Below, piece by piece: positions 18,890-24,037 of a DNA stretch of 24,037 bases. Made by a program: the position numbers and the translations under genes. Each line of letters begins with the position of its first letter. Positions within the stretch are counted from its first letter, which is position 1. Below the pieces are notes generated by a model. The model had not been told where the DNA came from, did not search any database, and saw only the letters and a list, made by a program, of their open reading frames with translations. Source of the DNA: a virus; UHGV virus genome UHGV-0103738. The stretch is one strand, 5' to 3'.

Positions 18890-19573
18890 ATGGCAACCAG
18901 TACCAATAAACGAAACGCTCTAAGGACTAAGAAAGCGTTACGGCAATGGTCTGAAAAGGCAACCGATACATTCGAAAGGGCGATAGGGGAAGGGGCGATC
19001 TTTGCTGCTCGTGCACTACAGAAGAAGATTAACAAGAATGTTGATAGACCTACTCGCTGGACTCAGCAAGCTGTAGGTAATACCAACTACAAGAACCGAT
19101 CAGGGACCAGACACCAAATCTTCATCAAGGGCGCAAGGGATAAGGACAAGAAGATCGGCAGTCAGGATGACTATCTGAAACACTATTTCGATGGCGGCAA
19201 AATCAATAAGCTAGTGCCAATCGCCAACGGTAAGGTCTTAGACTCCCACGGGAACATTAAGGCCATCAAAGGCGGTAAGATGATGCGTAACATCGAAAAC
19301 GGCAACTTCATCAAGGTAGAGAACAAGGAAGGGACTTTTATCATGAAGAAGTACAAGCCTAAGAAATCCCGAACCAAACGCGCTAAGAATGGATCGGCGG
19401 TGGCAAAACGTCGCTTAGAGAAACGCATCCAGAAACAGAGTAAGCGAATTGTTGCCGTTAAGTCGGATAAAATTTCTACTCGTTATTCGACGCTAGGATC
19501 GTGGGAAAGCAACGAGGAAATGATGCTTAAGAACATTAATAAGCACATTAAATCGCGCATGAGATACGTTTAA
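18890..19573 (+). CDS. Highly basic Lys/Arg-rich protein (227 aa), function unknown
   Basis: ORF tightly coupled to the upstream small gene. Very high K/R content throughout, with no transmembrane segment. Confidence 0.5.
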   Translation: MATSTNKRNALRTKKALRQWSEKATDTFERAIGEGAIFAARALQKKINKNVDRPTRWTQQAVGNTNYKNRSGTRHQIFIKGARDKDKKIGSQDDYLKHYFDGGKINKLVPIANGKVLDSHGNIKAIKGGKMMRNIENGNFIKVENKEGTFIMKKYKPKKSRTKRAKNGSAVAKRRLEKRIQKQSKRIVAVKSDKISTRYSTLGSWESNEEMMLKNINKHIKSRMRYV

Positions 19574-20594: not shown

Positions 20595-20852
20595 CTATGA
20601 TTTATTTTCTTGTTCTATGAAAATCTTTCTCACCTCATCAGAATAAATGTCTAGTGATTCCTCATAACATTTTCTGTATTCATCGTAATTACTGGTGGTC
20701 TTTTGACATAGCAATTTCAATGTCTTATGTGCTCCATCAATGAAAGCATCTTCTCTATAGGTTAGCGGTCTACGCATTTCTTGGTCTACGGTTGCCAATG
20801 CCAAGCAAGAATTCATAGATAAAATTAAACCTAAAATCTTAATCATCTTCAT
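20595..20852 (-). CDS. Small secreted protein (85 aa; start at ATG 20852, track gives a TTG start at 20867)
   Basis: N-terminal signal-peptide-like sequence MKMIKILGLILSMNSCLALA followed by a hydrophilic domain with two Cys. The start region overlaps the 3' end of the recombinase gene. Confidence 0.5.
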   Translation of the reverse strand: MKMIKILGLILSMNSCLALATVDQEMRRPLTYREDAFIDGAHKTLKLLCQKTTSNYDEYRKCYEESLDIYSDEVRKIFIEQENKS

Positions 20853-20856
20853 TAGC

Positions 20857-22536
20857 TTAAATTCCAAATTCTTGTAATGGACCTGGTATTTCTTCTTCTG
20901 GTTTCCAGTTCTTATCTGTCAGCATGTCTAAACATGGATGCAGAACAAGCCCGTTACTCTCCAGAATCTGCCTATCATTGATAGTCTTCAAATCAACGAA
21001 GATCCGGCCTTTCCTCGGTCCTCTTGAATTTTCTATTACAACTCTCTGGGTCTTGCCATCGATGTATTCCAGTACAAACAAGTTTTTGTACTTGTCAATC
21101 CTGCTACACCCGATCCGTTTTAGAGCTTGCTTAATCTTAAACCGGACCTTAATGCGATCCTCGTTGTAAACATCTTCTAAATCAAATTCTGCGAGCTTCT
21201 CCCAGCCTTGAGAGTCAACAGAATACATTTCCTCTTCTGCCATCTTAAGTTGATTGTAGAGTGTTTCACGCTCGCTATTGAGGGTAGTAATCTGATCGGC
21301 TAGCTCCTTCGTTGCTCCTGTCATAGCAGAAAGGGTAATCAGGTTATCAATCTTGCGTGATATTTCATCAATCTGTACTTTCAAAGCCGGAACCGGATTA
21401 GCCTTATCTTCAGCAATCCAGATTTTATCAGCCAGCAATTGCAATACAGCTTTCTCTAATTGGTCGCCGCGAAAACTCCAGTTTGTATGCACACATTCAA
21501 TACGACTAGAGCGCATTGCATCGCATGAATAACGATATTGGTTAGGCCGTCTGTTTGTTCCTTTCACCTTAACCATAGCGGAACCGCAATGTTCACATTT
21601 CAATAGACCAACACCACTAAGCAAGGGAATAGGTTTAGCTTCTTCTTTGTCTCCAAAGTTACATGCTCTAACACCAATGCTTTTCTTAAGGTGATAAAAC
21701 TCAGCGTCATCTAGCACACGAGGATAATAATCCTTTAACTCATACTTAACGCCATCTACAGAGATTTCCTTGATACCAATCAAAGCGCGGGTATGGAACA
21801 ACCTTTCAATCATTGCCCGTGACCAGTTTGAATGCCTCTTGTGACTTGCGGCTGGTGGTGGTGTGTATGTCGCGTTAAGGTGATCCAGTATCTCGGCGGT
21901 TGACCGTCCATTCCTGCGTAATTCCACAACTTCCTGAACAATAGGGAAGAAGACCGGATGAGGAAGCACATAACCAGATGTGGTATCAGTCCACCACATA
22001 TTCTTTCCAATTTCCTCGATTGCAACAGCCGGATTTTGTGGATTTTCTTGATGAGCTTTAATCTTAATCAGTGCGCTTGAGTTAGTACGATTGCGCTTAG
22101 TCTGGCTTTCCTCATTACCACGGATGAATAAAAGGATGGAGAACATCAGGTCCATCGGGTTAGCGGTAACAGTATCAAGCGAGTAGATCTTGTTATCCAT
22201 GCCAGTAACAATGGTTATCCCCCTACGGATGATTGAAAGGAATAACTCCTGTGCACTGACAATATCGGCACGGGATAAACGGTCCAAGTTTTCGATGAAT
22301 AGCCAGCTACCAACAGGAACGGATCTACCTATTGCATCAAGGAAACGAGATAGCGCCCCTGTTTTGGAGTTAGCACCCTTAAACGCAGATACACCCAGAT
22401 CCTGATAATCATTTACCAGTTCAAGGTCATACTTTACCGCAATCTCTCTAGCCATCCTGATTTGTCGTTCATAACTCGAACCATCATTCTGACGCATAGA
22501 CGAGAAGCGAATATACGAATACAGTTTAGTTTTCAT
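20857..22536 (-). CDS. Large serine recombinase (integrase/resolvase family, ~559 aa from ATG 22536)
   Basis: N-terminal catalytic motif YIRFSSMRQ (Arg/Ser/Gln spacing of serine recombinases) and ENLDRLSR. Central recombinase region. Cys cluster CEHCGSAMV...YRYSCDAM...ECVH (zinc-ribbon-like), then a coiled coil. Track start is a TTG at 22551; the first ATG is at 22536. Confidence 0.85.
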   Translation of the reverse strand: MKTKLYSYIRFSSMRQNDGSSYERQIRMAREIAVKYDLELVNDYQDLGVSAFKGANSKTGALSRFLDAIGRSVPVGSWLFIENLDRLSRADIVSAQELFLSIIRRGITIVTGMDNKIYSLDTVTANPMDLMFSILLFIRGNEESQTKRNRTNSSALIKIKAHQENPQNPAVAIEEIGKNMWWTDTTSGYVLPHPVFFPIVQEVVELRRNGRSTAEILDHLNATYTPPPAASHKRHSNWSRAMIERLFHTRALIGIKEISVDGVKYELKDYYPRVLDDAEFYHLKKSIGVRACNFGDKEEAKPIPLLSGVGLLKCEHCGSAMVKVKGTNRRPNQYRYSCDAMRSSRIECVHTNWSFRGDQLEKAVLQLLADKIWIAEDKANPVPALKVQIDEISRKIDNLITLSAMTGATKELADQITTLNSERETLYNQLKMAEEEMYSVDSQGWEKLAEFDLEDVYNEDRIKVRFKIKQALKRIGCSRIDKYKNLFVLEYIDGKTQRVVIENSRGPRKGRIFVDLKTINDRQILESNGLVLHPCLDMLTDKNWKPEEEIPGPLQEFGI

Positions 22537-22545
22537 ACCATTTCC

Positions 22546-22585
22546 AAACAAAAACGCCCCTACCGCGTATTATAACGATAGGGGC
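22546..22585 (-). terminator. Hairpin with T-run immediately upstream of the recombinase start (– strand)
   Basis: 10-bp stem whose one imperfect position is a G-U pair only in the – strand transcript, followed on the – strand by GTTTTTGTTT. The loop contains TTATAAT. Confidence 0.5.
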
Positions 22586-22599
22586 TAGGTGATTAAAGA

Positions 22600-23019
22600 T
22601 TAAAGAATTTCACGGCAGCTAATCAGGGAATAAGACGTATCACCTTTTTTAACATCAAATATAGGCGCGCCATCTACAGAATGCAGATATTTGATGTAGG
22701 ATTTACCATCTTCGGAACCATAATATTCTTCTTTCTCGTTCTTATCTTCTTTCAGTTTTGGGCTTTTGATTGTTTTATCAAATACCGGATCGTTGAAAGC
22801 AAATTGACTATTATCATCATTCACTCGAACCTTTACACCGATAAAACCACGGTATTTGCCAGACGGCGCATGATAATAACGGTCGCCATCACTCAGGTAG
22901 CGTGTATCATCTCCTTTATATTCGAAGTAGGAATTGCACACATAATAGGTATAGGTATTAGCATTCGCAGCACCAACCAAACCCAGAGCAAGAACAACAC
23001 CAGCGATAATCTTTTTCAT
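22600..23019 (-). CDS. Secreted (periplasmic) Tyr-rich protein (139 aa)
   Basis: SD AAGAGGAAA. Classic Sec signal peptide MKKIIAGVVLALGLVGAANA. Two Cys in the mature part. Confidence 0.6.
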   Translation of the reverse strand: MKKIIAGVVLALGLVGAANANTYTYYVCNSYFEYKGDDTRYLSDGDRYYHAPSGKYRGFIGVKVRVNDDNSQFAFNDPVFDKTIKSPKLKEDKNEKEEYYGSEDGKSYIKYLHSVDGAPIFDVKKGDTSYSLISCREIL

Positions 23020-23064
23020 AGTAGAATTTCCTCTTGTTGTTTGAATTACGATATATTTATATCA

Positions 23065-23187
23065 TTAAAAGTTAATGCTAATAATCAGCCCAAACACAAC
23101 CGCACCAATCAAATCAATCCAGTTAATACACAGCGAATATTCTTTCTTGAATGTCTTAGATGAAATGCCATCATGAAATTGTTTCAT
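23065..23187 (-). CDS. Small membrane peptide (40 aa), not in the ORF track
   Basis: SD-like GGGGTGAG before the ATG. Sequence MKQFHDGISSKTFKKEYSLCINWIDLIGAVVFGLIISINF has a C-terminal transmembrane helix. Confidence 0.3.
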   Translation of the reverse strand: MKQFHDGISSKTFKKEYSLCINWIDLIGAVVFGLIISINF

Positions 23188-23190
23188 TGC

Positions 23191-23271
23191 TCACCCCATA
23201 CTAACGACAATATAAGAAAGACTAATCATGGTTGTGAGACTACCTCCCACGAATGAGATAAAAGCTAACAT
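23191..23271 (-). CDS. Very small hydrophobic peptide (26 aa), not in the ORF track
   Basis: GGAG 8 nt before the ATG. Sequence MLAFISFVGGSLTTMISLSYIVVSMG. Its stop overlaps the SD of the next small ORF. Could equally be a leader or non-coding. Confidence 0.2.
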   Translation of the reverse strand: MLAFISFVGGSLTTMISLSYIVVSMG

Positions 23272-23285
23272 GTTTGATTCTCCAT

Positions 23286-23313
23286 TTAAAAAGCGGTGGG
23301 AATTACACCCACC
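23286..23313 (-). terminator. Terminator-like hairpin after the 145-aa gene (– strand)
   Basis: Stem GGTGGG / CCCACC with a 7-nt loop, followed on the – strand by GCTTTTT. Confidence 0.5.
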
Positions 23314-23327
23314 AAATTAGAAATTAA

Positions 23328-23765
23328 TTAAGCGCGAACGATGGTCAGAGTATCCAGCAAACCTTTTTCGTATAATTCGAAACACGTTTTATATTGCTCA
23401 ATCTTCCAACCGTAGCGGGTGATCTTATTCAGTAGAATAATCACGGTATTCTCATCTAGGTATTGTCCTTGCTTACCAATTACATATGACTCGCGGGATA
23501 GTCTCAGCTTACGGAAACCTTTAACACCTAATTCCTTAGCCACCGCTTTAATCTCGTTAATCTCACCTTCTGCGGCTACATATTCAGCGTCGATAATCTC
23601 AGTTGATGATCTCAGTGCTACCAGAACTAAGGCCATTGCTTCTTCTTCGGTACGAGCAACACCAGCTTTCTCGAAAGTCATCTCACCAAATTTACGAGTC
23701 ATAATATTGAACATTGTCTGTATTCCGTTTAAATCGGCGGGAATAGTACCCGCCAAATTAGACAT
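23328..23765 (-). CDS. Hypothetical protein (145 aa)
   Basis: ORF whose ATG overlaps the upstream stop (TAATG at 23763-23767). No recognised motif. Confidence 0.55.
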   Translation of the reverse strand: MSNLAGTIPADLNGIQTMFNIMTRKFGEMTFEKAGVARTEEEAMALVLVALRSSTEIIDAEYVAAEGEINEIKAVAKELGVKGFRKLRLSRESYVIGKQGQYLDENTVIILLNKITRYGWKIEQYKTCFELYEKGLLDTLTIVRA

Positions 23766-24037
23766 TACTTCTTGCTGATAAACTCTTTAGCGATAAAGTT
23801 GATTACTTCTTTCAGCTTCTTGTCTGTATCGATGCACGCTGGTAATTCTTCTTTAATATCCTGCGGCAGATACACATTGCCTTTAAAGTGGAGGAAACCA
23901 TCATTACCAATCATGTAGGAGAACATCCATTCACAATCGTTATCCGCTTCCCAGAACGCCACGGTCTCATCCCCAATCAAGGTAATGTCCATGTTGCGAC
24001 GCGCTGCGTAGTTGATGATTGCTTTACCGATGTTCAT
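23765..24037 (-). CDS. Hypothetical protein (90 aa as seen; ATG falls exactly at the window edge, so it may extend upstream)
   Basis: ORF ending in a TAATG overlap with the next gene. No recognised motif. Confidence 0.45.
   Translation of the reverse strand: MNIGKAIINYAARRNMDITLIGDETVAFWEADNDCEWMFSYMIGNDGFLHFKGNVYLPQDIKEELPACIDTDKKLKEVINFIAKEFISKK

Follow-up and report, generated by a model that had tools for sequence, protein, structure and literature searches.

The DNA analysed here, a stretch of 24,037 nucleotides (nt) of the virus genome UHGV-0103738 (hereafter the window), forms the right arm of a prophage. The subject of this report is a three-gene cassette on its minus strand (22600–23271), composed of two very small open reading frames (ORFs) of 26 and 40 amino acids (aa) and a gene for a 139-aa protein with a signal peptide. 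This cassette is real, cleanly delimited and largely unannotated. Judged from related loci, the two mini-ORFs are core genes of the integrase-proximal operon, constant whatever the adjoining slot holds, even when it is empty, and the 139-aa gene is one of several occupants of that slot. As regards function, we tentatively put forward, at somewhat below even confidence, an envelope-directed protective role for the products, either by exclusion of incoming phages or by neutralising a periplasmic enzyme.

The two mini-ORFs and the 139-aa protein

The 26-aa gene (23191–23271, minus strand) encodes a small membrane protein (MLAFISFVGGSLTTMISLSYIVVSMG) with a mean hydropathy of 1.64, no charged residue and one predicted transmembrane helix; its Shine-Dalgarno sequence is GGAG, and the ATG follows 8 nt further on. 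Its stop codon is separated by 3 nt from the ATG of the 40-aa gene (23065–23187, minus strand), whose product is predicted to be tail-anchored, with a polar N-terminus (MKQFHDGISSKTFKK) and then a C-terminal transmembrane helix. The ribosome-binding site of the 40-aa ORF, GGGGTGAG, stands immediately 5′ of its ATG, so that the initial annotation, which described both mini-ORFs as led by Shine-Dalgarno sequences, is borne out by reading the DNA in front of the two start codons. In the Salmonella locus L005, ORFs of 71, 26 and 40 aa overlap successively by ATGA. As a separate observation, an additional 62-aa ORF (L006 5649–5837) is inserted between the two mini-ORFs in another Salmonella locus.

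All related loci examined, even L055 with its empty slot, have an intact 40-aa ORF. The 26-aa ORF is intact in all of them but L055, which has a different hydrophobic ORF of 29 aa with a basic C-terminus in its place. Both are also intact in Salmonella loci whose homologue of the 139-aa protein is just 43–60% identical. The 26-aa protein falls to 35–42% identity, yet its length, the motif SFVG and the absence of charged residues are all kept. In the 40-aa protein 19 of about 40 positions are invariant, mostly among the first 15 residues (M-K-x-F-H-x-G-I-S-S-K-T-F-K-K), after which comes the hydrophobic C-terminal helix, and variants of 40 and 41 aa differ by an in-frame indel of 3 nt. Within the E. 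coli loci, the ratio of nonsynonymous to synonymous polymorphism (pN/pS) is 0.16 for the 26-aa and 0.10 for the 40-aa ORF, against 0.21 for the integrase. When all six frames were compared, the mini-ORF frame had the lowest pN/pS and was the sole frame without internal stops; the second lowest was the antisense frame that has its wobble positions in common with it, and this contains stops. These comparisons argue strongly that both mini-ORFs are genuine genes under purifying selection. That they are chance ORFs in a mere 5′ untranslated leader of the 139-aa gene would agree with their absence from the PGAP annotation in all four E. coli genomes checked and with the lack of a significant match in the family libraries (best E 0.089), but it is hardly credible beside their intactness across E. 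coli and Salmonella despite amino-acid divergence, the conserved length, the in-frame indel, the stop-free frame of lowest pN/pS and the occasional calls by gene callers (in a set of 15 billion predicted proteins, one call of the 26-aa sequence, and the 40-aa one on three contigs).

The 139-aa gene (22600–23019, minus strand) has the ribosome-binding site AAGAGGAAA 5′ of its ATG, and its codons 1–20 (22960–23019) encode the signal peptide. The N-terminus, MKKIIAGVVLALGLVGAANA followed after the cleavage site by NT, has a KK n-region, a hydrophobic core of 13 residues as h-region and an A-x-A cleavage site in the c-region, that is to say, it is of Sec type I, in agreement with the Sec signal peptide that had been claimed for it. 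Since there is no Cys at position +1 (no lipobox), the protein is not a lipoprotein. The mature part contains 14 Tyr among 119 residues, in agreement with its earlier description as Tyr-rich. An AlphaFold2 model is all-beta, with a predicted local distance difference test score (pLDDT) of 87 overall and above 90 over most of the mature part. The protein is predicted to be exported by the Sec route and to form a barrel of about eight strands. The residues invariant in the barrel family are C28, C135, D69-N70, F73 and D81-K82-x-I84-x-S86-P87-K88-L89-K90. The C28–C135 pair, conserved throughout the family, probably forms a disulfide, and because a Sec-type signal peptide is combined with this Cys pair, the barrel is predicted to be periplasmic. 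The proposed envelope targeting of all three products is therefore retained as a prediction from the signal peptide and the transmembrane segments.

Within one allele class the barrel gene has a pN/pS of 0.13, which indicates purifying selection. The family forms 8 clusters among 5.8 billion proteins; a profile search of 1.8 billion representatives gave 8 family matches, several of them frameshifted fragments, no relatives were found in scans of 185,579 species-representative genomes, and tblastn against 50,697 phage records gave no match. Judged from these collections, the barrel family is very small and does not extend beyond this prophage lineage. With the barrel model, Foldseek found no significant match in the PDB and weak matches in BFVD to phage ‘lipoprotein’ and lipocalin-like proteins, and only sub-threshold matches were obtained in Pfam, PHROGs, NCBIfam and PADLOC. 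Among these, DUF4352 (E 0.095, a lone match in one of seven family members) was not used, and PADLOC PDC-M63A (E 0.005 across 50 residues) was taken as chance. A match in the representative search to P0025, a 1752-aa repeat protein of Bacteroidetes type (E 9e-5), was judged to be a low-complexity or repeat artefact.

A local likeness was also observed between residues 58–86 of the protein (window 22762–22848) and the periplasmic domain of E. coli ExbD (about residues 62–88), with GVKVRVNDDNSQFAFSDPVFDKTIKS in the barrel family against PVYLSVKADNSMFIGNDPVTDETMIT in ExbD. The stretch of 28–31 residues includes several family-invariant residues, and the likeness is non-significant (HMMER E 0.4 against the PDB; hhalign probability 29%). 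It could be a convergence of beta-hairpins or a lead towards mimicry.

The cargo slot and its flanking elements

The slot between the 40-aa ORF and the integrase has five states between conserved flanks. The first is the barrel of 137–139 aa, present as deeply divergent alleles. The second is a gene for an 81-aa protein (L003 4823–5068, and L017–L030), which has an unrelated mature part with two Cys (...EQYVQGDSVKRAAVAPSLNQLCTELAQVAGVGDDDDFITACVWSHIEDINKRDAKLTGKKY), while its signal peptide and ribosome-binding site are exactly those of the 139-aa protein; this allele is the commoner one in IMG/VR, occurs on more than 1,000 contigs in E. coli and Shigella, and could be assigned to no family. 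In the third state, found in L017 and L030 (and, with a disrupted reading frame, in L019), an extra gene for a 113-aa N-anchored coiled-coil protein, which has a weak PHROG match to an Rz-like spanin, precedes the 81-aa gene and accounts for about 410 bp between it and the 40-aa ORF. The fourth is a gene for a 348-aa CapR-domain protein that is endonuclease-like (homing-endonuclease-like; L040 578–1624). The last is the empty slot of L055; here the barrel gene seems to have been deleted between two short sequences that resemble each other.

The alleles and their flanks differ greatly in divergence. Between L058 and the window the flanks share 85–95% DNA identity, while the mature barrels share just 36% protein identity; in L057 the mature barrel is 41% identical and the contrast with the upstream flank is the same, but the integrase itself has diverged to 73%. 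Since divergent barrels lie between similar flanks, and since selection within an allele class is purifying, deep alleles have been exchanged rather than drifting rapidly. On this comparison, slot contents are exchanged by recombination, with a 21-nt element, the ribosome-binding site and the signal peptide on one side and a hairpin, T2, on the other. As the 139-aa and 81-aa alleles have the ribosome-binding site and signal peptide in common, it is chiefly the mature domain that is exchanged.

The 139-aa gene lies in the integrase operon, between the integrase and the attachment (att) site, on the strand opposite to the structural genes. In close relatives the gene is variously replaced, deleted or frameshifted, while those structural genes that are in view stay at 96–100% identity. 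The tail, lysis and neighbouring genes of relatives with another slot allele are likewise at 96–100%, so the barrel is not an essential part of the virion, and the view that the gene is dispensable and has no virion role holds. The guanine-plus-cytosine (GC) content is 38.6% in the 139-aa gene and 35.3% in the mini-ORFs, a modest difference from 43% in the integrase and 42.3% in the window.

T2 is a strong hairpin with a T tract (22556–22585, minus strand; dG −20.5 kcal/mol, z −3.5 against shuffled sequences) between the slot gene and the integrase start. Of six relatives compared, five have kept it, with a barrel allele, the 81-aa allele or nothing in the slot, and only a remnant is left in L040, where the slot gene is endonuclease-like. 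T2 is thus kept regardless of cargo and borders directly on the ribosome-binding site of the integrase; it is therefore part of the 5′ region of that gene and not of the cargo. Its loop contains a perfect TATAAT, and this hexamer is kept in Salmonella L006 although loop and stem are changed there. T2 could be a terminator that overlaps an integrase promoter, in which case transcripts started inside it would lack the 5′ arm. At the other end of the cassette, the T1 hairpin with its T tract (23294–23314, minus strand; dG −12 kcal/mol, z −2.35 against shuffled sequences) lies just 3′ of the upstream 145-aa gene and abuts the Shine-Dalgarno sequence of the 26-aa ORF; it is found in E. coli-type loci and is absent from Salmonella L005 and L006. 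ORF and hairpin scans thus recovered, on the minus strand, the three ORFs and both terminators reported in the initial annotation. The accompanying idea that the three genes form one terminator-bounded unit was not upheld, as the mini-ORFs are constant with any slot content, T2 goes with the integrase, and T1 is lineage-specific.

The 21-nt element, GATATAAATATATCGTAATTC (23043–23063, minus strand), is AT-rich; it follows the stop codon of the 40-aa ORF and precedes the ribosome-binding site of the slot gene. It contains the palindrome GATATA-AA-TATATC (6+2+6) and is 100% identical in 25 of 25 distinct cargo-bearing variants, even in Salmonella loci whose flanking coding DNA is 50–70% identical. 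In the prophage DNA examined (the window and 18 kb of the far arm) it is a single copy. It might serve as a promoter, as an operator or as a flank for recombination. A repeated operator was considered for the 14-bp palindrome and rejected, there being no second copy in the window or in the 18 kb of the other arm. At the 21-nt element, directly upstream of the slot gene, the promoter scan gave no sigma-70 match that reached 9/12.

Prophage context and possible functions

The phage, so far uncharacterised, is a temperate siphovirus of E. coli and Salmonella, which its large serine recombinase integrates into hicB, or into ycdX in relatives. Over the match to the 139-aa protein, IMG/VR entry UViG_2778261179_000021 is 100% identical to the window; prophages of complete E. 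coli genomes are 99.8% identical to it across 3.6 kb, and a match is present in 60 of the 5,426 complete E. coli genomes. In strain 2014EL-1346-6 the prophage interrupts hicB, adjoining ydcR, and its end lies about 40 bp past the end of the window (24037), while relatives are integrated in ycdX. The attB site lies within the part of hicB that encodes the helix-turn-helix (EITQQELARRIGKP). In the same strain an IS1 element (L001 18251–18948) was seen downstream of the tail-tip gene, in the region matching the window's 227-aa ORF (18890–19573). The closest capsid of a cultured phage is only 43% identical and the closest integrase only 30%; none of the cultured phages has these genes, and we found no literature on this prophage family.

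The capsid, tape-measure, tail-fibre, tail-tip and endolysin genes are on the plus strand, and the minus-strand arm carries the large serine recombinase, which is the prophage integrase (20857–22536; Pfam Resolvase, Recombinase and Zn_ribbon_recom; PHROG 95 integrase; ‘recombinase family protein’ in PGAP). Two upstream genes (23328–24037, minus strand), for proteins of 145 aa (PHROG 14908) and 90 aa (PHROG 6147), belong to the same leftward operon, the order of which is 90 aa, 145 aa, 26 aa, 40 aa, slot, integrase. Downstream of the integrase is a second accessory gene (20595–20852, minus strand), followed by a terminator (20558–20537); its 85-aa product has an N-terminal hydrophobic, signal-like segment and no PGAP annotation. 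This gene is found only in the relatives closest to the window, those with the 139-aa allele, and at its position other relatives have a GIY-YIG or CapR gene plus a UvsW-like helicase gene. A 105-aa lipoprotein is encoded in the same arm of L006 (5253–5570). At the far end of the same prophage (NZ_CP024232.1; L056 11208–11987) is a gene for a 259-aa protein with a Sec signal peptide, which PGAP names ‘lysozyme inhibitor LprI family protein’; it is the last gene before the far-end att site and, in the circular genome, would stand just upstream of the studied operon and co-oriented with it. The suggestion of an envelope-targeted accessory set therefore finds support, in that the 85-aa gene also occurs in a subset of relatives and that the arm and the far end accumulate exported proteins.

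The protective role is proposed because of the predicted envelope targeting, the integrase-proximal position, the deep allelic diversity between conserved flanks and the other exported cargo. The products would act on the envelope of the infected or lysogenic cell and not in the virion, and the likeliest role for them would be to protect the cell from incoming phages or from enzymes of the periplasm. For the membrane peptides the site of action would be the inner membrane, where they might block, for instance, a host membrane protein or the entry of DNA, and the barrel might bind or inhibit a periplasmic target through the invariant DKxIxSPKLK, with its variable surface tracking variable targets. 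It is conceivable, though rather unlikely, that the fixed pair of membrane peptides and the swappable periplasmic ‘specificity’ subunits, with one signal peptide and one 5′ control element, make up an undescribed modular envelope-defence system. In a more specific version of this reading, the barrel would mimic the ExbD beta-hairpin and interfere with TonB-dependent entry.

Several results weigh against a protective role. The remote homology search, which had been suggested as a check, gave no match to any characterised exclusion, defence or inhibitor family, the hits in Pfam, PHROGs, NCBIfam and PADLOC being sub-threshold, and hhalign of the barrel family against MliC returned a probability of 5%. 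The mini-ORFs accompany every slot state, so that any functional tie between them and the barrel is hypothetical. The slot allele and the tail-tip C-terminus do not co-vary among relatives, which argues against a Cor-like masking of the phage's own receptor. With respect to expression, the sole sigma-70-like match that the scan gave for the cassette (9/12) lies inside the 26-aa ORF, and the best candidate promoter for the operon appears to span attP and would be split by integration. Expression may therefore be limited to the circular form of the phage DNA, and a lysogen would have to rely on an internal promoter to express the cassette.

Two alternatives seem to us improbable to a similar degree. 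In the first, the barrel would be a host-fitness (lysogenic conversion) factor, which either binds or inhibits something in the periplasm, for example, as PliC/MliC do, a lysozyme or else a peptidoglycan hydrolase, or binds a small ligand, and the lysogen would be protected from attack by its host or by competitors (lysozyme, bacteriocins, type VI secretion system effectors) rather than from phages. The predicted barrel of about eight strands with its N-to-C Cys pair, as in MliC (YQC...NNC), and the signal-peptide gene annotated as an LprI-family lysozyme inhibitor at the other end of the same prophage both speak for it. However, no PF09864 match was obtained, and in the hhalign comparison the signal peptide alone was aligned. 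Moreover, the loop motifs of MliC, SxSGAxY and the W-x-K-G region, show no conservation within the barrel family, and the deep allelic diversity would be more readily understood if the target varied than if it were conserved, as lysozyme is.

In the second, the mini-proteins, and possibly the slot gene, would serve early infection, the leftward operon being transcribed only from circular phage DNA; they would modulate a membrane protein of the host, be it a protease, a transporter or a division protein, and could thereby bias the choice between lysis and lysogeny or prepare the cell, as is done by CIII and Kil, small proteins of lambda's pL operon. This idea draws on the attP site. When the prophage ends are joined, the reconstructed attP (hicB type) has TTGACT-17 nt-TATCAT across the crossover core, about 30 nt upstream of the 90-aa gene, and a ycdX-integrating relative with a different core has TTGACT-18-TATCAT. 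The site points into the operon that runs from the 90-aa gene to the integrase, and in the lysogen hicB DNA replaces the −35 hexamer. The hexamers and core were read by eye (L001 23639–23700, L056 12215–12250, L059 7785–7815, L003 6060–6110), and the promoter is only putative, consisting of consensus matches that overlap probable integrase-binding arms. An early role would further suit mini-ORFs that are core genes co-oriented with the integrase, their translational coupling to the upstream gene in Salmonella L005, and the invariant cytoplasmic N-terminus of the 40-aa protein. On the other hand, there is no similarity to CIII, Kil or any known regulator, and in E. coli lineages T1 stands between the upstream genes and the mini-ORFs.

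The remaining alternative, which we regard as very improbable, is that the mini-ORFs, or one of them, encode membrane peptides similar to type I toxins, within an addiction or abortive-infection module, as their very short length, their hydrophobicity and the 29-aa substitute peptide of L055, whose basic C-terminus recalls ShoB- and Ibs-like toxins, might suggest. Yet there is no Rfam family (at the gathering threshold in the window, and at E up to 1 in 22400–23500), so no known antitoxin small RNA, though a novel antisense RNA could escape such a search; there is no PADLOC match, the ORFs are closely spaced or overlapping in an operon instead of standing alone behind a long structured leader, and the 26-aa peptide has no charged residue.

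Whatever the function, the catalogue of prophage accessory genes of E. coli (pathogenic and commensal) and Salmonella gains two rarely annotated, conserved genes for small membrane proteins and an orphan barrel family. The clean, compact slot with its conserved recombination flanks is a natural experiment on envelope-directed prophage cargo. If the products exclude phages or neutralise periplasmic enzymes, host range in phage therapy and competition between prophages would be affected; if they do neither, they are simply further uncharacterised morons.

Comparison with known systems

The 139-aa protein is, by its predicted structure, of the fold class of the PliC/MliC inhibitors, without demonstrable membership of that family. 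In common with PliC/MliC (and with PhiA and Neisseria ACP), it is, as predicted, a small exported barrel of about eight antiparallel strands with a Cys near each end. Membership of PF09864, to which the fold matches had pointed, was rejected at the sequence level, there being no match at E up to 10 in any of seven family members. The hhalign comparison mentioned above set the barrel alignment A1 against a 12-sequence MliC alignment, and a profile search of PDB sequences with the barrel family returned no MliC or PliC. In the MliC alignment S-A-S-G-x-R-Y and Y-V-F-W-S-K-G are invariant, whereas nothing equivalent is invariant among the barrels, of which only some have SG[KE]Y. That is to say, apart from the failed profile tests, the motifs of the lysozyme-inserting loops are absent, the conserved motif here is DKxIxSPKLK, and the mature barrel protein is about 20–35 residues longer.

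The closest general comparison is with phage morons, such as bor and lom of lambda and the morons of HK97 and HK022, and with the hotspots of P2 and P4, in which cargo is swapped between conserved flanks. Similarly, the gene here is present, absent or replaced among near-identical relatives, lies at the prophage end beside the integrase with a terminator downstream, has a GC content below that of the rest of the window, and its products are envelope-targeted. The differences are that the downstream terminator is fixed in the integrase 5′ region and kept with an empty slot, that the promoter scan gave the slot gene no private promoter, that the exchange concerns mainly the mature domain, and that the two mini-ORFs are core genes.

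Superinfection exclusion is brought about by various small phage proteins, among them Imm of T4 in the membrane, Sp of T4, which faces the periplasm and inhibits the gp5 lysozyme, gp15 of HK97, SieA of P22, Llp of T5 and Cor; the lactococcal Sie2009 and Ltp of TP-J34 are encoded beside the integrase. The products described here resemble them in being small, predicted to be located in the envelope and without a virion role; the combination of membrane peptides with a periplasmic protein recalls Imm and Sp, and the integrase-proximal position of the cassette recalls Sie2009 and Ltp. In contrast, there is no detectable sequence similarity to any of them, and, unlike what Cor or Llp would lead one to expect, the slot allele does not track the receptor-binding region of the tail tip.

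As for the mini-ORFs, KdpF, AcrZ, MgrB, MgtS and CydX are small membrane proteins that modulate larger membrane complexes. The likeness lies in the length of 26–40 aa, the single transmembrane helix and the fact that such genes are commonly missed by annotation, and the 26-aa peptide, uncharged and proteolipid-like, comes near to KdpF in particular. They differ in that there is no sequence similarity and that the mini-ORFs are encoded by a phage, in one prophage lineage only. On the whole, the cassette is of a familiar general kind with orphan components, and there is little in it to surprise a phage biologist.

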